From a virus: 64,000 nt of DNA. Location of the stretch: IMG/VR virus record IMGVR_UViG_3300045988_102744. One strand, 5' to 3'. The position numbers and the translations under genes were made by a program. Under the pieces are notes generated by a model, which ran no database searches, was not told the DNA's origin, and worked only from the letters and a program-made list of their open reading frames with translations. Positions 4,646-27,323 of this stretch are shown in pieces (the first letter of the stretch is position 1; every line of letters begins with the position of its first letter).

Positions 4646-5323
4646 ATATGCACGTATATCAGCAACATACAAGAAAAGTCAGACTTTCGTTGTTTTTGGA
4701 TTATTTTCATTAAGTTTGCAATATTAGTTTCAGGAAGGGATTATGGAAAAAGGGAAAAAGTAAGAACGGAACGTAACTAATAACGGTAGGAAATGAGAAT
4801 CAGTACCATCAAACGTAACAACAGCATTCATCTTATGTATAAAGACATTATGAATGATTTAGGTCAATTAAGAACTGTAGTTTCAAAATCCTATATTTAT
4901 AATCTGATACGAAATCAAACCGGATTAAGTATCAGAACTATATCCCATGTCTTGAATCACACAAAAGAACAGGATACAGATTCTTTGTGAAAAGCGTACA
5001 TTTTCATACATTTGTGTATTCTTTAGTTTTTAGATTTAAGTTTTTTCATGGTATTAGTTTAGATTAGTGTAGATCAGGGTTCGCAGTGATGCGGGCCCTG
5101 GTTTGATTTACAGCGCTTTACCCAAAATGGGAAAAGCGTAAGTTATTGATTGTAAAGTTTTCCACTTAAATGGGGAAAATTGCTCATTGTGTATTATTTT
5201 TCTATCTTTTCTGAAAATACTTCTCTTCTATAGGAAATAAACACACCTATATTCCACCTTACAATCATGATCTTTGTTACGTGCTTCATGCACGTATGTT
5301 TAACAATTAAATACTATAAAATT

Positions 5324-17800: not shown

Positions 17801-18307
17801 AAAGACAATATGAATGAGGTAGAAAAAACCAATCTCAAACGTCTCAGTGTCTATGCCGGCACGTTCCTTATCATGCAGGCCGTATCTATGCTTCTTGCCG
17901 GATGGCGTGATGATGATGAAAACGAAGAAAGTTGGCTTACTCAATTCGGATCCTATGTCGGATTCAGAACCATAAATGAAATAGCTTCACAGATGCCGTT
18001 TATTATGGAGCTTAATGTGGTAGATATCATTAACGACCCGTTTGTTATGGGACGGAAGCTGAAGGATCTTACCGATCTTAGGAATTATTCACTTGATAAA
18101 GTAACATCCGGTACATACAAAGGAGAGTCTAAGTTATTTAGGCAACTCGCCAAACAGACGTTTATCAAACAATGGTATAACATCAAGACGCCGGAAGACG
18201 TAGCGCGCGCCTATAATTGGTGGCAGCAGACAAACAACAAGTCAATGATGTTCTTCATCGGCGCCACTCCTGATTCGGAAGGGGACGATGATGTTAATTA
18301 CAAATAG
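11885..18307 (+). CDS. giant 2140-aa protein, largely alpha-helical/charged; candidate tail tape-measure / ejection or virion-associated mega-protein
   Basis: 6.4-kb uninterrupted ORF, no in-frame TGA/TAA/TAG; no polymerase or enzyme motif recognised; position at end of late block before receptor-binding-like genes. Confidence 0.9.
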   Translation: MTSTCIIKRDNKNKVVSVSTRSGDRSMLFDKIASIPLMENRERATTVFKTVFSNKFLKAFGDWRRNVPINKQAYNKVKSNIDLIPEAYRERVLDKASKMSNPILVSKSDAPYGIQESGFGFYSQDLGDNIMLVDAMVPSSISVPEGPGIDAGQYLQDAISSDFTPVSMVRDKGVNYMVIKDGLKIFSPEELPEADSNPVGVTYQTGEPRLFFMNDRSQLFEDYGEALRSGGNDIRIGFLSGIVQESTVDGVADITYKAGKYVLNNPKSFIPVMTASTSTSLSTKGGIINYLIKKGLLSGSKIFDPETRSYYLTGEGHAGQIRLFNSALSYTELRNHFGSDVSMNDQGMITINSLDNSKVTMRLATGGTERVSKEQIKSDLKSGRYNELDAKYDHFDALVVSFILEDNDLYADTKAKIVSDYSQEERNQRNSIVEILKTLGVSVVGMTDYIEKYQTKYGHEPSAKALADIANNVIAVGEDATLSDLVEETAHFLVEAYRDQNAVESVLQDVEGTEEWNQYAGQYYNTYGKVYEGSELDNAVRREILGKILAREMQTGTAQAPVEPTSFLGRVRQLLSGIVNWLKSALSTQRQDLNNVIKNIRDLAITDIDKGFDTSLLKDNDFTLYSLSSMNKNKFLESKIRALRKTLRDLRQISSDRAVTTSMTLAQLKTIEDKINKVETEIDKNEMAAAMNSMISTAEAQVRYLSNVVNTILHGDTKDGKLHFNTNDRKNVDIINNQVLPIMNDLRGYIRNRSTEFDEREKQDYTNRINTVIADINGIQSDIKSVQDLDESTLLDKLMNELHVPADKVKRVKEFFDKVQHDVSWISRWFGILEHSSSPFNNALGAMIAKDNYNAMVNAQPAISDFLAYAKKHGFNKSEFEKLLQKVDGKTSNYLRSALDMAKYDRNKKLAQMRAFATAMNIEISEEEINDVVDNNRNYVFKREVVDKDGNTVTENAKFKPSSDRVNTDIFTIEQEKIYTEQMEKWDAENSELEFSESYATRMESIYKKAEEELGHPVSQTTKEYLNALSRQKRILRQPFIDGNGNFDEVAYYKSSNYEEEGLLRKQRKEAASEYIYVGTRRVEKTGDQLKMAKEIQAINEVWRKESNNVTNVVSESFLQKLRTIQRESGGEAALKTLMLGGHLSFNDRFWNDVESEQSARTESNNKASYLKMAHDIISSTTSDRDATDVDSIVKDIEKNKAIIKEIIGNNRDVADIGEINEATFTSSERDAFRAASEAIEADYAILIDYAKMVGLEDIDKYLTKSSKAENEVNQSYLNALADSKEVEWKFVQRHTTAKKAKRIQALRDKLFKAADNRYLFTVSETNYLSEKLGISKELDGRDFRNAVNAKMASLFLNNTRESGIEEANAIVNEFARSQVFSYYKRMAPTGYAAMIDKIGRGEIDVAQMVKDVQNGTSTQDYGMDISYLSFDPARAWVAESEAENNGRNPDYVKDHGYGHRMPKKSLYRDESYFNDFGIKYDADGNEVATKNVEQWNMIQKLKEIKRQSLDLYKEQSPNLYAIPQISKQDIERIEGLGINFKNTVRNFVSDLCLDRVDDSLYGKTRQGEVYDPEDRLRSIPKYYIYELENQDDVSHDFGYSYSMLMMQSSLYNEKQKSIELAQGLEQMLLNKQFEGGKKAEATQAYQMFRDFFNDHYYGIRMNTKKLTVNIGGYTVDLTRIMMAVERFMSVMNLALSPFVAATGALTGHINLIMESAVGQYISKDSLKYASAEFSRLAPSCIAETGDIDRKSKLYVIGERMGIFNIRNRMYGAGYNRAARTLMRSPMYAFMEILNYPLDPQVMIATMDNVRYYKGRFYTFQDFKMEKERNKEQSTIKREWNALKDRTLWSMVDIVDGKVVVKPGSGVTVEEVETQMAITRNQVRSLSQICNGSLNEENRTAASRNWIARFMTAHRGWLVLAAQRLWKRRGFNFQTMQEEEGLSITLKNMIAKTFSLASESGMKNIIDVWNENKDNMNEVEKTNLKRLSVYAGTFLIMQAVSMLLAGWRDDDENEESWLTQFGSYVGFRTINEIASQMPFIMELNVVDIINDPFVMGRKLKDLTDLRNYSLDKVTSGTYKGESKLFRQLAKQTFIKQWYNIKTPEDVARAYNWWQQTNNKSMMFFIGATPDSEGDDDVNYK

Positions 18308-18520
18308 ACGAAGAATATCAGACTTCCATTGTTTTTGTATGATTCCAATATGTTATATTAGCATCGTCAAAGAGTAGACTATGCGTTTTTTGTTCTTACT
18401 TGAAAGGTTATGTAGGTTTATTTTTTCTGAAATTGTTTTCTTACCGGTTCTCAGTCAGAGATGATAGGGAACCGGTTTCTTTTATGTTGTCAATTATTGC
18501 TATCTTGCAAACAAAAAATC

Positions 18521-19138
18521 ATGAGACGAAGATTTCAAATAGGGATGGGGGTAAATCCCTCGCTTATAATCAATAAAGGCATATACATCCAACATGTAGA
18601 TGGAGGATTATATACAAAAGAAAATTGGTCTAATAAAGGATATTCCAATGATCTATGCAATGGAATAGCTCTTGTAGATAAAGTGTGTTTTGTTATAGCC
18701 ACCGAATATATTGGCACATTTCGTTGGGGTAAGGATGGAGAAATAGACAATATATTTGCACAAGATAGTTCTCATATGGAGACCGTTAAAAAGGATTATT
18801 GGGGGCGTGAAAATCAGAATGCGTATCTTAAATATGATACCAGTAATACAGATTACGCTTTTAATAAAGCTAATAGCTATTTATTTAAAAATGGTCAAAA
18901 TGGATATGTAGGTGGCGCCGGAGAGTTTTTTTTGATATCATTGTATGCGAATGAAATAAACGAATGCCTTTTAATGGTAGGAGGTACGATAATGACTAAT
19001 AGAATGTGGACATCCACTCGAAATGAAAAATTTACCTATTCGTGGTATTATGATATAAACATCCAAGGAGATCATTTGGATACAGGTTCAAGGGGTAGTT
19101 CACGTTATGTCCGCCCCTTTACTGAATTAATTTTATGA
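18521..19138 (+). CDS. DUF1566 (Lcl C-terminal, C-type-lectin-like)-domain protein with N-terminal MRRRF motif
   Basis: track ORF 18461..19138 trimmed to ATG 18521 (MRRRFQIGMG); C-terminus MWTSTRNE...YSWYY...GSSRYVRPF resembles the YWSSTE...AW...VRCV DUF1566 signature. Confidence 0.6.
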   Translation: MRRRFQIGMGVNPSLIINKGIYIQHVDGGLYTKENWSNKGYSNDLCNGIALVDKVCFVIATEYIGTFRWGKDGEIDNIFAQDSSHMETVKKDYWGRENQNAYLKYDTSNTDYAFNKANSYLFKNGQNGYVGGAGEFFLISLYANEINECLLMVGGTIMTNRMWTSTRNEKFTYSWYYDINIQGDHLDTGSRGSSRYVRPFTELIL

Positions 19139-19142
19139 AATT

Positions 19143-19880
19143 ATGAGAAGAAGATTTGAAAATAATGCTAAACTATATGAGTATAAGATAGTTAGCGATT
19201 GTATAGGGGGGGGGGTAATCGTAGAAGGAAAGAAAGTAGGCACCATTCCACAGGGCGGGCAATTTATCTTTCTGTCTAAAAAAGAACGGCTGGATTCCAT
19301 AAGTGTCCAAGGCGGTGTTCCAATGGAAGATAGGCAAGAGATCGATAGTCAGGTTGATACGACAGAGGAATTGCTTGAACAGGATTCGGTGGTTCTTGCT
19401 ATTGCTTTAACAACCTCTCCTTATTATGGATTTAGAGTAAGTGTGATAGCACCTGATGAGTTTACGCTAAGAACAACCAATAGGATTAATAGAACCTTTT
19501 TAATAACAAGCTTTACTCCACCTGCTGCTATATACGGTGTAAACTTTAGTGATCCTATTGTCCTTAATTATGATAGTTACCAATATGAGATGTCAGATCT
19601 TGTAATTGATGGACCTCATGATAGAATAGTTAGGGCAGATCCTAATTTTACTTGGGCTATAAGATGTACAGATGCCGACTTTACACCTTTGCCATATCCA
19701 GAATCATGGTCTGGCCAAGGTTTAAATTCTATGTTCTTATCAGAAATGAAACGTCTTACTCCTGGTGATCATCATGTATCATATACAGCTTATATTAATT
19801 TGGACTTGATAGATGATGGCGGAAGTAAAGTTCATACTGAATATCTGATATTAGAAAAAACACTTAATTTTACGATATGA
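19143..19880 (+). CDS. hypothetical 245-aa protein with N-terminal MRRRF motif and an internal G10 homopolymer (Gly-Gly-Gly)
   Basis: ORF track; G10 run at 19206-19215 in frame. Confidence 0.6.
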   Translation: MRRRFENNAKLYEYKIVSDCIGGGVIVEGKKVGTIPQGGQFIFLSKKERLDSISVQGGVPMEDRQEIDSQVDTTEELLEQDSVVLAIALTTSPYYGFRVSVIAPDEFTLRTTNRINRTFLITSFTPPAAIYGVNFSDPIVLNYDSYQYEMSDLVIDGPHDRIVRADPNFTWAIRCTDADFTPLPYPESWSGQGLNSMFLSEMKRLTPGDHHVSYTAYINLDLIDDGGSKVHTEYLILEKTLNFTI

Positions 19881-19925
19881 CAACAATCCCCAACCGTACG
19901 CCTATTGTATGGTTGGGGATTGTTG
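19881..19925. terminator. bidirectional hairpin terminator between convergent + and - gene blocks (CAACAATCCCCAACC / GGTTGGGGATTGTTG, 15-bp perfect stem, 15-nt loop)
   Basis: perfect inverted repeat immediately after TGA of 19143..19880 and 45 nt from stop of 19970..20458. Confidence 0.7.
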
Positions 19926-19969
19926 TAGTTACCATCTTTTCTTGTATAAGCAGAACATGAAATAAGTTT

Positions 19970-20458
19970 CTAAGCATTAACTTCATGACCTCCCCTATCT
20001 GTGAAAACTAAACCAATACCTTCTATGATATGTCCTACTACAGGAGCTTTGTCAAATTCCTCCTTCGTAGCCCAAGTAGCATTATCAGGCATAAGATCCT
20101 TGAATGCGTCCGAAACATCACCTTGACACCAGCAGTTATTTGATGTAACAATGCCTTTCCCTTCGATATTGATATACATTTTTCTTCCACCACATCCAAG
20201 GCTGTTCCATCCGCTCGGTACGTTTTCCACCATAGGCTTAAGCACCCAGCTTACACCGTCTATCCTAACCCATCCAGGATCGTCTTTGTGCTTGTCGTAC
20301 ATATTTTGCCAAAAAGAGCATTCGTAGCACCATCCCCTGTCTTCCATAACAGTTCTTATCTCACACCTTTCAAATCCATCTGCATCCATCGTGTGCGGAG
20401 AATGAGGCTGGTGAGGGGTGCCACATTTTGGACATACGAGTTTTAAATTATTTTCCAT
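19970..20458 (-). CDS. zinc-ribbon protein (CPKCG...CYEC), paralogue of 42989..43399
   Basis: ORF track; shares CPKCG-ME(R)DG-CY-C-FW-IDG-SW-GGR-FKDL-PDNA-W pattern with the 136-aa protein at 42989. Confidence 0.6.
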   Translation of the reverse strand: MENNLKLVCPKCGTPHQPHSPHTMDADGFERCEIRTVMEDRGWCYECSFWQNMYDKHKDDPGWVRIDGVSWVLKPMVENVPSGWNSLGCGGRKMYINIEGKGIVTSNNCWCQGDVSDAFKDLMPDNATWATKEEFDKAPVVGHIIEGIGLVFTDRGGHEVNA

Positions 20459-20459
20459 A

Positions 20460-20696
20460 TTATTTTACTTTCACGATCTTAATAGAATCTCCGATATTGT
20501 ATTCCCCTTGGTATCCAACGAATTTTATAAATCTATTACTGTTAAATATTGAAAATCCTCCGTCTTCACCATAATATATCACACATTCACCATCTAAAGG
20601 ACGTAGATCATATATAACCCATCCGTCATTAACCTGATTATCATCATGCGAACATGATGATAACACAAGTGCTATCAATAAAACAAAATACCTCAT
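20460..20696 (-). CDS. small lipoprotein (signal MRYFVLLIALVLSSC)
   Basis: ORF track; N-terminal hydrophobic segment ending in lipobox-like LSSC followed by SHDD. Confidence 0.55.
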   Translation of the reverse strand: MRYFVLLIALVLSSCSHDDNQVNDGWVIYDLRPLDGECVIYYGEDGGFSIFNSNRFIKFVGYQGEYNIGDSIKIVKVK

Positions 20697-20703
20697 ATTA
20701 TTT

Positions 20704-20895
20704 TTAACATAAAAATTTATAACCTGGTTTTACTGCCTCTGCTTCTTCTCTTGTATCAAACATTAAGATAGTAGTTGATTCTGTACCTTCACAAACGTAA
20801 GACACTTCCACCCACCACCTAAAAATCCCAGAGCCATAATCATCATAGTACGGCTCGGAAAGAACTTCTTCTACATACCCATCCAAATAATTCAT
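20704..20895 (-). CDS. hypothetical 63-aa acidic protein
   Basis: ORF track; ATGA overlap with upstream gene. Confidence 0.4.
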   Translation of the reverse strand: MNYLDGYVEEVLSEPYYDDYGSGIFRWWVEVSYVCEGTESTTILMFDTREEAEAVKPGYKFLC

Positions 20896-21638
20896 GATCG
20901 TTCCTCCTTGTTTTTAGATTCTGCCTCCTCGATTATGCTGATTACCTTATCAACAATATCCGAATCAGACATTTTCTCAATAAAAACATCCATTGCCTTA
21001 GTTATGTCATTGGCTTCTTTTTCTTCAAGAGCTATTTCTCCACCGGTAATAGCATCAGATAATGATGTAGATAAGTGTCTTATCTTATCAATGCTCATAA
21101 ACGTAAATGGATTACCACCTTGACCTCCACCCATTTCTTTCATGATCTGATATCCACCTGAGATAAGTCTGCCTGATGTCGTAGCCAAGGAGGATACGAT
21201 TAGGGACAGTACCGCCGCTTCCGTCCGCTCCTCGGACACGCCCTTCGACCACACGGCTGCCCTTATAGCGCCGGCCAGGTCGTCTATGTATGGCATGAGG
21301 CAATCTTCCATCGCTTGTGTTATATCAGCTATAACCCCACTACGCTCTTTATTTATGTAGTAGATAGAAGCATTGTACCTCTTTATCTCTTTGTCCATGT
21401 CATTTAAAAGACGCTTGATATTGTGCTTATACATAGGACTGGTTTTAATTACTTCCTTTAGCTTAAGAATGTAATTATAAGCCTGGTCGTTTACAAATAA
21501 TGTCATGGTCTCAACCGTTGAATGAAGTGTGTTAAGACTGTTAAGAATCTTATCGAAATTGTTTATCAAATAAGCTCTTCTGGCTTTTGCTGCGTAGTTA
21601 ATGTTATTAAAATTATTCATTTTATTCATTAGATTCAA
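20892..21638 (-). CDS. hypothetical 248-aa protein (true start possibly further downstream at Met44, ~21509)
   Basis: ORF track; first 43 codons are N/K-rich low complexity directly abutting the TnpB stop and may be non-coding. Confidence 0.5.
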   Translation of the reverse strand: MNLMNKMNNFNNINYAAKARRAYLINNFDKILNSLNTLHSTVETMTLFVNDQAYNYILKLKEVIKTSPMYKHNIKRLLNDMDKEIKRYNASIYYINKERSGVIADITQAMEDCLMPYIDDLAGAIRAAVWSKGVSEERTEAAVLSLIVSSLATTSGRLISGGYQIMKEMGGGQGGNPFTFMSIDKIRHLSTSLSDAITGGEIALEEKEANDITKAMDVFIEKMSDSDIVDKVISIIEEAESKNKEERS

Positions 21639-21645
21639 CCTTATA

Positions 21646-22836
21646 TCACAAAATATTTATTCTAACCGGATTAAACACAAATCCACTATCGATTATCTTT
21701 CCAATGAAAGAATCACCGACTACTTTTCTTGCTATTCCTATAGCTCCATTAATATCAGCATTAATTAGCTTTCCAACGGAACTTTGGAATAATCCACGTT
21801 TCTTTCTTTTCCCTAAATAGGATTCTTGTTTCTTTAGAGGTTCAAAAGCAAGATGGTCAATCTTTGATGTGTAAGATTCCTCATGAGTAATTACCTCTAT
21901 CCCTAAAAGATTTGCTTTGTAAACAATCTTATCAATCAATTTAGAATGAGGAATAGAAACAAAATGTTGGTTATTCCTTTTACCGATATTTATCTCGTTT
22001 TTCCATTCTTTGTTTAATCCAATGATGATTGTTCCTATATTGTTAGATTTACAAAAGTCTACAATGTATCTACTGATTTTATGCAATTTGTCTTCTATCC
22101 AACAATTTCTAAACAAAGTAATTTTTCTTATTCTATTTGAAGTTCCCTTATTACCAACAAAAGACATCAACTTAGCTTTCTTCTTATTGTACCACTGATT
22201 TACTGATTTCATAACCCGTCCGTTTATAATGAAAGAATTAGTTTCTACATTACTAATACATGAACATAAATTATTCAATCCTAAATCAATCGAAAGAAAA
22301 TTGTCTTTGTTTAAACCAAGATCAGTTTCCTTTCTTTCATAAACTACCTCTACTACATAACATGTAGCTTGAGGGATTATTCTAACTTGTTTTAGTTCGT
22401 CTTTCTTTACATTTGTTTTGATAGGTTTGATTATATCTTTAACAAAATAAATACAATTATCACCCTTTACCCTACAATTGCAGTTGGTGAAAACAACCAT
22501 GTTTTGTTTCTTACCTTGTTTGTATGATGGAAGGTGAGGTCTATGATTTCCGTATTTAGAAGGATTCTTTTCAAAATCCTTCTTGAGTTTTATCCAGGAT
22601 TTTATGTTTTTAAATACCTGTTTAATCACCTGTTGGGATACATGATTAGGTAAATTCCTGAAATAGAATTGGTTTTCTTTGCAAAGTTTGTTTGATAAAT
22701 CAAATTCCTTTAAATAGTTACCTGAAAAGATTCCTTGACGAATGTTGTAAAGAACATAATTATATAACAAGCCGGATTTGAAGCAAATATCCTCAAACCG
22801 GTTGTCTTTAACTATATGCCTTTCAACTAATCTCAT
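21646..22836 (-). CDS. tnpB: TnpB-family (IS605 OrfB / Cas12-ancestor) RuvC nuclease homologue, stand-alone
   Basis: 396 aa; LYNYVLYN helix; RuvC-I SIDLGLNN (D), RuvC-II ITHEESYTSK (E), RuvC-III INADINGAIGIARK (D); no Cys in the segment where the CxxC..CxxC zinc finger normally sits; no Y1 TnpA ORF nearby. Confidence 0.85.
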   Translation of the reverse strand: MRLVERHIVKDNRFEDICFKSGLLYNYVLYNIRQGIFSGNYLKEFDLSNKLCKENQFYFRNLPNHVSQQVIKQVFKNIKSWIKLKKDFEKNPSKYGNHRPHLPSYKQGKKQNMVVFTNCNCRVKGDNCIYFVKDIIKPIKTNVKKDELKQVRIIPQATCYVVEVVYERKETDLGLNKDNFLSIDLGLNNLCSCISNVETNSFIINGRVMKSVNQWYNKKKAKLMSFVGNKGTSNRIRKITLFRNCWIEDKLHKISRYIVDFCKSNNIGTIIIGLNKEWKNEINIGKRNNQHFVSIPHSKLIDKIVYKANLLGIEVITHEESYTSKIDHLAFEPLKKQESYLGKRKKRGLFQSSVGKLINADINGAIGIARKVVGDSFIGKIIDSGFVFNPVRINIL

Positions 22837-22889
22837 TTGAATGATTTATATCGTAAATGTAATCGTTATTTGTAAAATAATCAAATTAT

Positions 22890-23411
22890 TCAATCATCGC
22901 ATTCAAATTTTAGATTTTCAAGTTCATGTATTTGTAACTTAAGAGACTTAATTAAATCCGTTCTCTGTTCCTCTGCATATTTCAAAGCTTCTTCTTTACT
23001 TTTAAAAGCTTGATACCCTATTGTATAAGGAGTGAACCGGTCAGGGGTGTCGGCTAATAAAGTACCATCATAATCTTCTATTTTAGCTTTTACTTTTCTT
23101 ATCTTACCATCTTGCAGACATGTGTCTGTAATCCACACAAATATATCATACATTTCTTCATATAATTCATACCATCCCGGCTTAGGAAATCTTGATGTGA
23201 ATTTAACCTCAGTATCTTTTTCTAAGACATTAATATCGTATGCTTCCGGCCACAGCTCTTTTATGTTGTCTTCGTCTTCGGCATACGCTACAAGTATGAA
23301 TGAATCATCGGATTCACCACTACACCAATATGGATATTTTATAGACCATTTGACTGGACGGTAGTCGTTACCGCAGTCGGATTTTTTAATATAAAATCTT
23401 GCTCTAATCAT
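22890..23411 (-). CDS. hypothetical 173-aa protein translationally coupled to the C5 methyltransferase
   Basis: ORF track; ATGA overlap (23408-23411) with upstream MTase; no HxH/Y1 transposase motif. Confidence 0.55.
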   Translation of the reverse strand: MIRARFYIKKSDCGNDYRPVKWSIKYPYWCSGESDDSFILVAYAEDEDNIKELWPEAYDINVLEKDTEVKFTSRFPKPGWYELYEEMYDIFVWITDTCLQDGKIRKVKAKIEDYDGTLLADTPDRFTPYTIGYQAFKSKEEALKYAEEQRTDLIKSLKLQIHELENLKFECDD

Positions 23412-24571
23412 GATTCTTTTATTCTTTTAAGTATATGTTCAATCACTTTAATAGTCCACCTGTTTCCCAACATCTTGTACTGTTGGGTTTCGCTGCATTC
23501 CCATTTATACCAATCTGGTACAGTCTGTAACCTGGAGCACTCTGTAGGGGTTAATCTTCTTATTCTGAAATCGCCCTGTAATGCTCTCTGTATGATAAAA
23601 CTGTTTCTATCATATGAATTACAAGATAATGTTGGATCCTTATCTCCATGAAATACTCTTGGTATTTGGAAAATAAGATTATCTTTTTGAACTGTTGTGA
23701 GACAATTGGATTTTCCATCGTTTTTTAATTCAATCATCTGAACTGTTTTAAGACCAGATTCTCTACATGTAGGTTTTTCTGGATTCCTGCCTCTCATTGC
23801 TACACAGATAAGATCGTACATGTATTTACCCTTTACAGTAACATTATTGGATTTCTCATCTTTTGTTTTAATATTAGCTCCATAACAATTTCCCTTGTCG
23901 TGATTTCTTTTCAAGTGAAAAGCTAAATTGTTTAAAACTTTTTCAGATAAGTAATATTTTTCATCTACTTCATATTCAGCTATATCACTTATGGTCAAAC
24001 CTTCGTCTTCAGGTTGAGGAATAATGCCGTCTTGAATATTAGTCCAATAAATACGTTTCCTAACTTGAGCTGAAACAAGTGCTGAATTAATATGATTGCC
24101 CTTACACCCTATAGCATCATCGAATACCGACTCCCATTTCTTTCCCATCTTAACGTTCTCAAGAAGAAACAACACATCAGGATTAGTTTTTCTTACATCA
24201 TTCAAAATACGAATAAACTCCCAGAACAAGTAAGACTGACCGGCAAACTCAAATCCTTGTTTTTTTAATTCAAGATACTCATTAAGTGATTTGATTTCTA
24301 TTCCTTCTACGGTAGACAACCCTTTTCTTTTTCCAGAAAAGGACATATCCGTACATGGGCTGCCGGCTAAAATAAGATCTATGTGTCCAAGATCTTCTAC
24401 ATTCAAATCCCTTACATCTCCTACTTGTATAGTATTAGGGAAATTTAATTGCGTTTGTTTAATAGCAAACTTATCTATTTCTGATGCATAATATACTTCA
24501 GGTGTGATCCCTATTTCTTTTAACGCTATTTGACCACATGACATTCCGTCAAATAAACTTAACACTCTCAT
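23408..24571 (-). CDS. DNA (cytosine-5) methyltransferase, Dnmt-like motifs
   Basis: motif I LSLFDGMSCG, motif IV GSPCTDMS, motif VI FLLENV, motif IX/X RLTPTECSRLQTVPDWY; track ORF extends to 24646 but start at MRVLSLFDG (24571) avoids a 71-nt overlap. Confidence 0.85.
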   Translation of the reverse strand: MRVLSLFDGMSCGQIALKEIGITPEVYYASEIDKFAIKQTQLNFPNTIQVGDVRDLNVEDLGHIDLILAGSPCTDMSFSGKRKGLSTVEGIEIKSLNEYLELKKQGFEFAGQSYLFWEFIRILNDVRKTNPDVLFLLENVKMGKKWESVFDDAIGCKGNHINSALVSAQVRKRIYWTNIQDGIIPQPEDEGLTISDIAEYEVDEKYYLSEKVLNNLAFHLKRNHDKGNCYGANIKTKDEKSNNVTVKGKYMYDLICVAMRGRNPEKPTCRESGLKTVQMIELKNDGKSNCLTTVQKDNLIFQIPRVFHGDKDPTLSCNSYDRNSFIIQRALQGDFRIRRLTPTECSRLQTVPDWYKWECSETQQYKMLGNRWTIKVIEHILKRIKES

Positions 24572-24575
24572 GGCA

Positions 24576-24884
24576 TTATACACATTTTTCAATTTTAATT
24601 GATTTTGATGATAGATACATATTCCATGTTCCTCTGCCTCTGTCACCTTTTTCGTTTTGTTTTTGGATTGTCAAGTACAGATCTCCGTCTTCACATACTT
24701 CAACTTTTTTCAAGAAGCCTATCATTTCATCTCCTGTTTCGTGTAAAATACGGATCTTATCTCCTTCTTTTAACCCATAATTGGAATCAAAATATTCTTT
24801 TTTGATTCTATCAATATTGTCTTTATGGTTTTTTATAGCATAAAGCTCTTCTCTTAATAAATAATTTAGTTGTTCTATTGTCAT
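24576..24884 (-). CDS. hypothetical 102-aa protein
   Basis: ORF track. Confidence 0.45.
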   Translation of the reverse strand: MTIEQLNYLLREELYAIKNHKDNIDRIKKEYFDSNYGLKEGDKIRILHETGDEMIGFLKKVEVCEDGDLYLTIQKQNEKGDRGRGTWNMYLSSKSIKIEKCV

Positions 24885-25447
24885 TTCTTTTCCTCCTTAC
24901 TTAAAGGCATTAACCCTTTTCCGTGCTTGTCATACCACAGCATAGCTATACAGTTCCATGCACATTGTGCAAGATGAAAACATCCTGTATCGGAATCCAC
25001 TCTTTCCCCTTTCATGTATTCCATTAGGTGTCTAAACATTGCAGCTCGATACCGTTCAAATCCGTTGTCAAGATTCTGCCAATTATTAGGCCCATATTTC
25101 TTGGCTCCGGCATGATAGACTCTTACAATATCTTCAATCTCTTCCATCGGAAGCAAATCCCATCGTAGTTTGTCGTCAATGATGTCATTTTTCACTGATT
25201 TTATTGAAGTACTTTTTTCTGGATCTCCTATACGAATAAGTTCCATAATGTCTGTTTCTATAATAATTGCGTCTCCATTGTAATAAACTTCAGCAAACTT
25301 GTCATTTTCTTTTATGTTTGTTGCTGAAGTCACTAAAGATCCTTTGTATATTATAGTGTTTTTATCTATCTTATCATCTTTCAGTGTTTGAAAAATAGAT
25401 CCTTTTGGATAAAGGATGTTTTTAGTATTATTGTCCATTTTTTCCAT
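24881..25447 (-). CDS. putative phage nucleotide pyrophosphohydrolase-like protein (GAKKYGPNNW ... RHLMEY ... DTGCFHLAQCAWN motif block)
   Basis: ORF track; C-terminal block resembles the dATP/dGTP diphosphohydrolase N-terminal-type domain from memory; low confidence on function. Confidence 0.5.
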   Translation of the reverse strand: MEKMDNNTKNILYPKGSIFQTLKDDKIDKNTIIYKGSLVTSATNIKENDKFAEVYYNGDAIIIETDIMELIRIGDPEKSTSIKSVKNDIIDDKLRWDLLPMEEIEDIVRVYHAGAKKYGPNNWQNLDNGFERYRAAMFRHLMEYMKGERVDSDTGCFHLAQCAWNCIAMLWYDKHGKGLMPLSKEEKK

Positions 25448-25491
25448 CGTTTTATCGTTGTTTTAATCAATTAGTATAATGATATAGTCCA

Positions 25492-25863
25492 TTATTTTTC
25501 TTCTTCGCCTATAAAGCGATCAAATTCTTCTCCGCTCATAACAATGCGGTTAATGATAATTATGCCGTTATCGCTATAATCACCACTTTTAACTCCCATA
25601 TCATCAAGCTCCTTCTTTAATTCTTCAAATGTGGGACCTGTCTTGCTTTTAAAAAATAAAGTAGCATGTGCAAGACTTCCGTTGTTTAGTTTTGCTCTCA
25701 CGGTATAGACATATCCTTTTTCCTCTTCATCCTTTTTGTTGACACCATCAAGGATGCTATTTATCATATCCTTGTCCTCACGTGATAGGTTGGATATAGC
25801 TATTCTGCCCTTTAATCTAAATACTTCGTTTTCGTTCATGACTTTCGGTTTTATTGTTTTCAA
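25492..25863 (-). CDS. hypothetical 123-aa protein
   Basis: ORF track. Confidence 0.5.
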   Translation of the reverse strand: MKTIKPKVMNENEVFRLKGRIAISNLSREDKDMINSILDGVNKKDEEEKGYVYTVRAKLNNGSLAHATLFFKSKTGPTFEELKKELDDMGVKSGDYSDNGIIIINRIVMSGEEFDRFIGEEEK

Positions 25864-26122
25864 AATATTGTCTTACGGCTTCTATGGCTTTATCGTCATC
25901 AAAAGCTTCTTCAAACTCCGTGTAGAACCTATCTCGCTCCATGCAGAATGTGTTTTTCCCTTCCGGTATAGGACGGAACACAACCACCCTCTCTTCAGCG
26001 TGATCGGTTCCTATTATGTTATTATCTAAGATAATAGAATATCTTCTTGAACTTTTGTTGATAACAACATCATGTTGAAGACCATACAATTTAAGTATTT
26101 CCCTTAATTCACTTGTTTCCAT
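25817..26122 (-). CDS. hypothetical 101-aa protein
   Basis: ORF track. Confidence 0.45.
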   Translation of the reverse strand: METSELREILKLYGLQHDVVINKSSRRYSIILDNNIIGTDHAEERVVVFRPIPEGKNTFCMERDRFYTEFEEAFDDDKAIEAVRQYFENNKTESHERKRSI

Positions 26123-26864
26123 TATTTGAAGATTTTATATTTTTAGAAGATACTGCTCCCGATCCCCACTTTTTCTTATATATAGTCCCCATCATGTTTA
26201 TTAAATCGGAAAAAGAAGATATGGTTCCCATTTCTATACAAAATGCAAGATTGGATTGAAGCATTTCAAGTTCTTTTAACTGCTCTTGAGTCGCTCTGTT
26301 TCTTATCATGCTCTCATGTTCGTTAAAAACGATCCAATTGAGGCCTTTAGCCATTCTTGTATAATCTGCATCAGGAAATCTTGATATAGCCCTTGATAGG
26401 ACATTATATTTATCTCCCGCCTCTATCCTATTTAAAATAAGTTTGTCCGTCAACCATGTTACTACTTCAGCATACAGCATAGGGTTAAGCTCCATAGCTA
26501 CAAGAACCCATATATAAGGATTGCACATCGTTCTCCTATTCTCTCCTCTTCCCATAGTTTTATAAGCCCCCATCTTTTTCATCACTTTTATAAGTGATTC
26601 TTTTTCAACAGATTGGATAAAACCAGGAAATCCTGCTTCTATCGTATATCCTTGTTTTTCAAGGATATAGTATATTCGTTCAGCACTTTCTTTGTTGGAC
26701 AGAATGTTTTCTATTCTCTTTTCATTCCATCCCATTTCTATCCTTTTTCTCGTATAAGCCTCTTGTAGGTCTGTTAAGGACATAAATGATGTTTTGGTGT
26801 CTTGTTTAATTATAACACCAAACAGTTCCCGATCTTTCGATACCATTGTAACATTTGTTTTCAT
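26109..26864 (-). CDS. KilA-N-like domain protein (putative antirepressor-type DNA-binding protein)
   Basis: track ORF 26109..26918; segment TMCNPYIWVLVAMELNPMLYAEVVTWL resembles KilA-N core; start moved to Met19 (26864) because the upstream 54 nt form a palindrome. Confidence 0.5.
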   Translation of the reverse strand: MKTNVTMVSKDRELFGVIIKQDTKTSFMSLTDLQEAYTRKRIEMGWNEKRIENILSNKESAERIYYILEKQGYTIEAGFPGFIQSVEKESLIKVMKKMGAYKTMGRGENRRTMCNPYIWVLVAMELNPMLYAEVVTWLTDKLILNRIEAGDKYNVLSRAISRFPDADYTRMAKGLNWIVFNEHESMIRNRATQEQLKELEMLQSNLAFCIEMGTISSFSDLINMMGTIYKKKWGSGAVSSKNIKSSNNGNK

Positions 26865-26886
26865 GAAATATAACACTAAAAAAAAT

Positions 26887-26914
26887 ATCATGATGCAAAT
26901 ATATGCATCATGAT
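26887..26914. promoter_or_regulatory. operator-like palindrome ATCATGATGCA-aatata-TGCATCATGAT upstream of the KilA-N-like gene
   Basis: perfect 11-bp inverted repeat with 6-nt spacer. Confidence 0.4.
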
Positions 26915-26966
26915 ACATTAATAAAAGATTATAGTGTTAAATTTTACTTATAGCGTTTTTATGGAC

Positions 26967-27323
26967 TCACATTATTCCTTCCAAATTTACTTTAATAGAA
27001 CCATTTATAGTTTTAATGCTCCCATCTATGGTTGAAATCACATCATCTAAATCATTTATAATACCTTCCATGTCATCAACCACCTCCTCCATATAAGTTA
27101 CAGCCTGATCTGATTCCCAATATCTTTCTGAGTCTTGTAACGATTCAGGTATATTATCTCTCGCCTCAGTCTCTTCGTCTAAAATCATATCAACATCATC
27201 TTTGGCTGAATTTATGTTATACTTCAACTCCGATAACTTTGATTTGATGTATTCAAAATCTGTTTTATACTTATCTACGTTTTTAATAACACCCAATATT
27301 TTTTTTCTTCTCTTGTCGTTCAT
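26967..27323 (-). CDS. hypothetical 118-aa acidic coiled-coil protein
   Basis: ORF track; ATGA overlap with helicase gene. Confidence 0.5.
   Translation of the reverse strand: MNDKRRKKILGVIKNVDKYKTDFEYIKSKLSELKYNINSAKDDVDMILDEETEARDNIPESLQDSERYWESDQAVTYMEEVVDDMEGIINDLDDVISTIDGSIKTINGSIKVNLEGIM

Follow-up and report, generated by a model that had tools for sequence, protein, structure and literature searches.

The TnpB proteins of IS607-family insertion sequences are RNA-guided nucleases (PMC11061315), and the ends of these elements display direct repeats without terminal hairpins, with IS607 proper exchanging over a GG dinucleotide (PMC6188088). In the IS605 family, it has been shown experimentally that TnpB drives the homing or retention of its element (PMC10055086), and a 2026 review extends this to IS607 (PMC13565253). 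TnpB genes have also been seen in epsilon crAss-like phages, where they were earlier listed as "transposases" (PMC11054128). Here, we analyze one such gene in the viral stretch IMGVR_UViG_3300045988_102744, the whole of which (64,000 nt) is henceforth termed the window. We propose that it belongs to a ~1.29-kb non-autonomous OMEGA element of the IS607 family, which has lost its transposase gene tnpA and is selfish and still live in the genome of an epsilon crAss-like phage; we place the probability of this reading at roughly 0.8. The original prediction for this gene had offered two readings, namely an IS605/IS1341-like insertion and a domesticated RNA-guided factor in a defense island.

The tnpB gene lies in an insertion between two phage genes

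The gene is a 396-amino-acid (aa) open reading frame (ORF) at 21646..22836 of the minus strand, to which all coordinates refer unless the plus strand is named. It sits in a ~1.29-kb insertion between two genes of an epsilon crAss-like phage. In crAssE-Sib (OR575929), a 93%-identical epsilon crAss-like phage (PMC11054128) whose identity to the window is 89-95% on either side of the gene, 1292 bp are missing exactly at tnpB, and the homologues of the flanking 173-aa and 248-aa ORFs overlap directly (…GATGATTAATTACGCG…). Further, a pattern search recovered at least 120 other viral contigs with the empty junction and the same gene order, which are likewise devoid of tnpB. Thus, the gene lies in an insertion of ~1292 bp; the GC content over tnpB is 0.287 as against 0.34-0.38 in the neighboring intervals.

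The extra DNA comprises positions 22892..21603 (1290 bp) and a second copy of the dinucleotide AT, with the left copy at 22894-22893 and the right one at 21602-21601; the exact boundary could shift by as many as 3 nt (ATT). To its left, at 22893..22900, the end of the 173-aa ORF supplies GCGATG followed by the AT exchange dinucleotide, a segment which includes the candidate target-adjacent motif (TAM) region (…TGAT) and is unchanged in empty-site genomes, where GATGATT runs directly into AAYTAYGC. The left end (LE) of the element, TGAATAATTTGATTATTTTACAAATAACGATTACATTTACGATATAAATCATTCAA, spans 56 nt (22837..22892) and is absent from crAssE-Sib and the at least 120 empty sites; its first bases, TGA (22892..22890), form the present stop codon of the upstream 173-aa ORF. 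The non-coding right end (RE) spans 43 nt (21603..21645), ends in ...TTTTAATAAC, a terminus conserved in all clades, and holds two 9-nt tandem units (AATGAATAA) along with in-frame ATGs at 21629 and 21620. The empty sites and the element-derived first codons of the downstream gene bear out the earlier suggestion of a TnpB-only insertion overlapping the start of that ORF, though not the family to which it was assigned. Likewise, of the block running from a C5 methyltransferase through the 173-aa ORF and TnpB to the 248-aa ORF, which had been considered as a possible insertion, only the tnpB part is inserted: the remaining genes are present in that order in crAssE-Sib.

IS607 ancestry and mobility

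Viral relatives, for which the best 80 of 114 stretches were kept (69-100% identity; most on contigs of 80-160 kb), are spread over 22 different downstream flanks, with a pair of copies in each of two contigs; as two of the flank groups share one site, these represent 21 independent sites. In one sibling contig, L065, a 77%-identical tnpB is preceded by an ORF of 194 aa, the stop of which overlaps the start of tnpB. The upstream ORF codes for an IS607-family serine transposase TnpA (NF033518, 167.7 bits; cutoff 110), and the leader in front of it (the LE before tnpA) aligns with the 56-nt LE of the window. Hence, we interpret the window element as an IS607 derivative in which deletion of tnpA appears to have fused the LE leader directly to the start codon of tnpB. 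In L002 (MT835500), a C-terminal remnant of tnpA has been kept. The autonomous form with both tnpA and tnpB is found in seven IMG/VR contigs of epsilon crAss-like phages (L326-L332; 92-154 kb) at six sites; that their TnpAs are 99-100% identical at these different sites argues for recent transposition inside phage genomes. Among the loci fetched, a serine recombinase is the only transposase found beside relatives of this lineage, and in records of Helicobacter phages, TnpBs that are ~42% identical to that of the window adjoin resolvase genes. As originally predicted, the window itself has neither type of tnpA, with a tblastn search using the serine TnpA of the sibling element yielding no match there; BLAST and nhmmer also detected no second tnpB copy or solo right end in the window.

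The ends of the element are marked by the 10-mer TGAATAATTT, which is directly repeated at the LE and the RE, in addition to the 9-nt tandem repeat in the RE; no terminal inverted repeats were found at the element ends, nor any of the IS605-style subterminal LE/RE hairpins that had been envisaged earlier. We also observed within the LE (22854-22885) a TTTG followed 20 nt on by TACATTTA, with sibling LEs having TATATTTG or TATGTTTG at the same place. This arrangement resembles the -33/-7 promoter consensus of Bacteroidota (TTTG / TAnnTTTG) and would fit a Bacteroidota host.

Across 185,579 species-representative genomes, we recovered one close relative (79% identity) on a 20-kb contig ascribed to 'Vibrio olivae' (L203, NZ_JBHMEP010000019.1), which may reflect contamination of that assembly by a crAss-like phage; the TnpB lineage looks almost phage-restricted. 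A different TnpB (44.5% identity) is carried by crAssE-Sib at OR575929.1 64190-65410, and several TnpB lineages coexist in the epsilon crAss-like phages.

The TnpB protein and its missing zinc finger

Several lines of sequence and structural comparison indicate that the window gene codes for a real and intact member of the TnpB family of RNA-guided nucleases, which is predicted to be capable of cleavage. Its translation contains the motifs LYNYVLYN, SIDLGL, HEESYTSK and NADINGAIGIA, scores 158.6 bits against the NCBIfam profile guided_TnpB (NF040570; cutoff 100), and matches the Pfam profiles OrfB_IS605 (PF01385; 64.5 bits) and Cas12f1-like_TNB (PF07282; 32.7 bits) above their gathering scores. 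The RuvC triad of D184 (SIDLGL), E320 (HEESYTSK) and D361 (NADINGA) is conserved without exception in an alignment of the protein with 39 relatives (35-49% identity), and the YTS and NADxN motifs are correctly placed when the protein is aligned to Cas12f. Searching the PDB with the single sequence returned weak Cas12f matches only, and stronger ones required a family profile and a comparison of folds: the AlphaFold model (predicted local distance difference test score 90.8) matches AsCas12f and the TnpBs of ISFba1 (8iaz) and ISDra2 (8h1j, 8exa) with a Foldseek probability of 1.0. Together, the profile scores, the invariant triad and the fold match uphold the 396-aa TnpB with an intact RuvC D/E/D that had been read from the sequence, and the profile and Cas12f alignments confirm both the placement of these residues and the loss of the zinc finger. 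When the window tnpB is compared with 17 other elements, the ratio of nonsynonymous to synonymous substitution rates (dN/dS) is 0.05-0.15, and all 18 ORFs are intact (394-396 aa); TnpB is under purifying selection.

The TNB segment lacks zinc ligands: there are zero cysteines among the 47 residues between RuvC-II and RuvC-III (HEESYTSKIDHLAFEPLKKQESYLGKRKKRGLFQSSVGKLINADINGA), and the family profile places this segment over the CxxC...CxxC region of AsCas12f. Among 150 cluster representatives of 35-50% identity, of which 112 could be scored by motif search, the equivalent segment measures 45-61 aa (45-55 in almost every case), with between 0 and 2 cysteines and in no case four. Hence, the loss of the finger is an old, clade-wide trait of this TnpB branch and not a phage-specific remodeling. 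The C4 finger is not family-defining, because some large branches of TnpB are known to have lost it (PMC10691335). The absence of the finger had thus been correctly noted, though its interpretation as a phage-specific loss or a sign of domestication does not hold for a feature lacking in the whole branch.

A predicted omega-RNA and its guide

Application of RNAalifold to the last 200 nt of 19 distinct elements yielded five helices between 21719 and 21628 (21719-21715/21693-21689, 21711-21706/21701-21696, 21685-21680/21672-21667, 21666-21661/21633-21628 and 21652-21648/21644-21640). These outline a predicted omega-RNA scaffold at 21603..21719, which overlaps the last 74 nt of tnpB (stop included) and the whole RE. 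In the 19 elements, 96.6% of the helix cells are paired, as against 32-48% with the partners slid by 1-3 columns, and the helices show 27 double-sided changes as against 11.3±3.1 in shuffles (0/500 shuffles reach 27). Several of the compensatory changes alter amino acids (TCTTTC/GAAAGA, TCTTAC/GTAAGA and TCATGT/ATATGA), and therefore support selection acting on the RNA structure of the predicted omega-RNA. An nhmmer profile of the scaffold finds a single copy in the window, and an Rfam scan of 20500..23500 at E<=1 gave no match, RAGATH-18 included. The omega-RNA formerly suspected at ~21450-21700 has accordingly acquired a predicted scaffold on the same strand, if no Rfam counterpart. Conservation among the elements stops at AAC(A/G)T, with the sequence diverging at once thereafter, as expected of the boundary between scaffold and guide. 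Placed from this RE boundary, the putative guide flank is TAACTACGCAGCAAAAGCCA (21581..21600), which is native 5' coding sequence of the downstream gene.

These observations bear on whether the phage has domesticated TnpB, i.e., keeps it for its own benefit, either in attacks on competing phages or host DNA or as a TldR-like regulator, in an accessory island with the methyltransferase. We consider this improbable: most related phages are without the insertion, the site being polymorphic with at least 120 empty genomes; relatives are found at no fewer than 22 sites, and the autonomous form continues to transpose. Moreover, the guide position falls in the neighboring gene, as it would for any copy of a transposon, all three catalytic residues are retained, in contrast to TldR, to which the original prediction had compared it, and the methyltransferase block is unchanged without tnpB. 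Against these stand the strong purifying selection without a linked transposase, the near-confinement of close relatives to phage contigs (the one 79% match in 185,579 species genomes), and the consideration that cutting element-free competitors would incidentally help the carrier phage.

A second possibility, that we regard as no less improbable, is an immobile and decaying IS607 remnant without activity. This would sit well with the loss of tnpA, with the window LE, which directly after AT is 3 nt (RGT) shorter than the sibling LEs, and with the copies at the same insertion site in 22 other contigs, whose 98-100% identity could be purely vertical. However, an inactive remnant does not account for an intact ORF with dN/dS of 0.05-0.15 across elements at different sites, for invariant catalytic residues, or for RNA helices kept by compensatory substitutions, some of which change amino acids.

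Junctions, exchange dinucleotide and candidate TAM

Two sites have clean empty alleles, namely the tnpB site of the window and the site shared by contigs L019 and L062; at both, the empty allele reads X-AT-Y and the occupied one X-AT-[LE…RE AATAAC]-AT-Y. The window also harbors the empty allele of the latter site (TTAG-AT-TTAA; 5030-5039, plus strand), at which L019/L062 have a 92%-identical sister TnpB element; the window phage is occupied at one insertion site and empty at another. In a third empty allele, the AT lies within a native ATG, with a left flank unlike that of the occupied copy. Six junctions of autonomous copies fit X-AT-element-AT-Y, and on that reading L328 and L329 have ordinary native ATG starts. 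The base before AT is G at 8/8 independent left junctions of the AT-core clade (six with TGAT and two with AGAT), and this small sample suggests 5'-(T)GAT as a candidate target/TAM.

We rejected (G/T)AT(G/A)GT beside the LE as a TAM in the flank, since the six autonomous junctions and two empty alleles put RGT… in the element and leave NGAT as the target. The L027/L025 site was excluded from the junction model as a clean empty-site comparison on account of its rearranged junction, truncated LE and 35-bp deletion: the two contigs share their left flank, the LE is cut to ~18-26 nt, and one variant is without 35 bp of the flank beside the RE.

The candidate TAM TGAT resembles the TTGAT of ISDra2. 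An IS200/IS605-group (IS1341-like) element, which a Y1 HUH TnpA would mobilize as single-stranded DNA by means of subterminal hairpins, was the family first suggested and matches the TnpB-only architecture of ISfinder's IS1341-type, but it is very improbable here, given that the only transposase found with the lineage among the loci fetched is the IS607 serine recombinase, that the ends carry direct repeats without hairpins, and that the junctions feature a duplicated 2-bp exchange dinucleotide typical of serine recombinases (PMC6188088).

Start codons and neighboring genes

In crAssE-Sib, the homologue of the downstream 248-aa ORF starts at ATGATTAATTACGCG and overlaps the upstream stop. The AT used in the window lies in codon 2 (ATG ATT) of this gene, and the native start was left upstream of the element. 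With its native start thus cut off, the downstream gene (20892..21629) would, on the reading-frame analysis, have to initiate inside the RE at the ATG at 21629 or 21620, gaining MNKMNNFNNI or MNNFNNI, respectively. The earlier proposal that the first ~43 codons of the 248-aa ORF are non-coding is right in kind, though only 13 codons (21638..21600) are element-derived; similarly, the gap from the tnpB stop to the listed TTG start of that ORF is 7 nt in place of the 8 nt given. The stop of the upstream 173-aa gene was converted from TAA to TGA by the insertion, with the protein unchanged. The phage would tolerate such an insertion, the upstream stop being re-created and in-frame starts being supplied for the downstream gene.

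A comparable pattern recurs at other sites. The right junction reads ATG or GTG at 13/22 sites, and at 12 of the 21 independent sites the triplet at the junction begins an in-frame ORF of 64 or more codons, versus 16% for random AT positions of the window (binomial p about 2e-5). The site in L070 is the start of a homologue of the window's 2140-aa gene: 117 of the 119 retrieved matches are empty and have their native ATG exactly there, and the occupied ones read GTG. This suggests that the exchange dinucleotide constitutes the A-T of an A-T-G, so that the start codon is re-formed. Donation of the start codon by the RE itself was rejected, as the empty allele of L070 has the native ATG and the codon consists of the exchange dinucleotide and the G of the flank, with A changed to G in that clade. 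In L071, at the start of a giant structural gene, the left flank is unrelated to that of the empty alleles (L206 onward), and extra DNA or a rearrangement accompanies the insertion. Not all insertions are benign, as an ORF seems to be broken by the autonomous copy of L326; hence, the start-codon pattern is likely to be partly survivorship.

The neighbors are as had been described: a C5 methyltransferase gene (23408..24646) overlaps the 173-aa ORF by 4 nt, and the 248-aa ORF lies downstream. The order of the methyltransferase gene, the 173-aa gene and those downstream is preserved in the tnpB-free crAssE-Sib; therefore, the association of the methyltransferase with tnpB is coincidental, and the link to an accessory or defense island built around an orphan methyltransferase is unsupported. 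Just upstream of the methyltransferase, an ORF at 24881..25447 has a dATP/dGTP diphosphohydrolase N-terminal domain (PF18909, E 9.5e-27), which hints at functions in the nucleotide pool or DNA modification.

Proposed mechanism and its implications

Drawing on established TnpB biology (PMC8612924, PMC10055086, PMC11061315, PMC13565253), we propose that the omega-RNA, formed by the 3' end of tnpB and the RE, would read into the adjacent phage gene, the first ~16-20 nt of which would serve as the guide. The TnpB-omega-RNA complex would then cut the element-free allele at TGAT-TAACTACGCAGCAAAAGCC in phage genomes that replicate together or infect the same cell. The element would be copied in as the cut is repaired by recombination with an occupied genome, resulting in homing, or in retention after excision, and new sites would be reached only with TnpA supplied in trans by an autonomous copy. 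The population data are consistent with homing without being decisive: four haplotypes of the left flank are found with the site occupied, and each of them also exists as an empty allele. Among the empty alleles (L083 onward, 24 nt after GATGATT), variation is almost confined to wobble positions 3, 6 and 9, numbered from AAC (AAC/AAT, TAC/TAT and GCA/GCG); these differences could be neutral variation or represent escape from TnpB targeting.

Several points count against a live, selfish IS607 element of this kind. The 5' end of the omega-RNA, the length of the guide and the TAM are all predictions, with the TAM weakly defined as NGAT from eight junctions of the AT-core clade only. The exchange core of the lineage appears to be AT rather than GG; this scheme too rests on the AT-core clade, and the RE ends in GT in some clades. 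With its shortened LE, the competence of the window element to be mobilized by TnpA is only presumed. Only 21/120 empty sites match the first 19 bases of the guide flank exactly, and 20/120 do so through base 21; hence, efficient homing into most present-day empty genomes is uncertain. Moreover, the association of the occupied site with one flank haplotype could stem from common descent and not from homing.

A broader scenario, which we offer tentatively and with some doubt, is that the IS607 TnpB elements without a transposase are maintained in lytic epsilon crAss-like phages, and pass from one co-infecting genome to another, chiefly by acting as RNA-guided homing endonucleases. With an AT core and a (T)GAT target, they would land at A-T-G starts, where they would be nearly cost-free, and the wobble variation of the empty alleles would be possible escape from the guide.

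Under the preferred reading, the gene is part of a selfish OMEGA element derived from IS607 and not a domesticated, zinc-finger-less factor in a defense island. The crAss-like phages, which are among the most abundant human gut viruses, carry an almost phage-restricted IS607 lineage, with many transposase-less descendants under strong purifying selection, while autonomous copies transpose. This would make the epsilon crAss-like phages a natural system for testing TnpB homing between co-infecting phages, and the lineage provides a TnpB that is small (396 aa) and independent of zinc, with a candidate TAM that is short and rich in AT. In addition, the re-formation of start codons indicates how elements may sit in tightly packed phage operons at little cost.

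Comparison with known systems

The closest parallels are with the IS607 family (Helicobacter pylori IS607 and IS1535): a sibling has an IS607-type TnpA above the NCBIfam equivalog cutoff, terminal inverted repeats are absent, short direct subterminal repeats are present, and exchange appears to take place over a 2-bp dinucleotide, which is present at either junction and a single time in the empty allele. In contrast to that family, the window copy is without tnpA, the exchange appears to be over AT (GT at the RE in some clades) and not GG (PMC6188088), and the close relatives of the element are virtually confined to contigs of crAss-like phages. ISFba1 and related IS607 TnpBs (PMC11061315; 8iaz) share the compact ~390-aa TnpB, the D/E/D RuvC and a guide RNA at the 3' end of the element, and the fold of 8iaz matches the window TnpB with a Foldseek E of 2e-14 and a template-modeling score of ~0.6. 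However, the window TnpB resembles 8iaz only weakly in sequence (an E-value of 5e-4 by profile, and 15% identity when the structures are aligned), the window element has no RAGATH-18 match (E<=1), and its proposed TAM is (T)GAT as opposed to AGGAG or GAGGG.

With the IS200/IS605-type TnpB of ISDra2 (8exa, 8h1j; fold probability 1.0), the window TnpB has in common the domain order, the catalytic triad and the logic of the omega-RNA; ISDra2 differs in having a C4 zinc finger and a Y1 TnpA, whereas the window lineage is without zinc ligands and is partnered by a serine recombinase. Unlike type V CRISPR-Cas systems with Cas12f, the window tnpB adjoins no CRISPR array, there being no repeat array within 18000..27000. 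TldR (PMC10705468) is also a phage-borne relative of TnpB without a transposase; nevertheless, TldRs have lost the RuvC residues and use guides against host promoters, whereas the triad of the window TnpB is invariant and its guide position is its own flank. Finally, the free-standing homing endonucleases Seg and Mob of T-even phages offer an analogy of a different sort, in that they too are small selfish nuclease genes lodged between conserved phage genes with a patchy presence. Like them, the window element is expected to cut the element-free allele during co-infection, as per the homing proposed here; it differs from them in that its recognition would be RNA-guided and in that a route of transposition by TnpA also exists.

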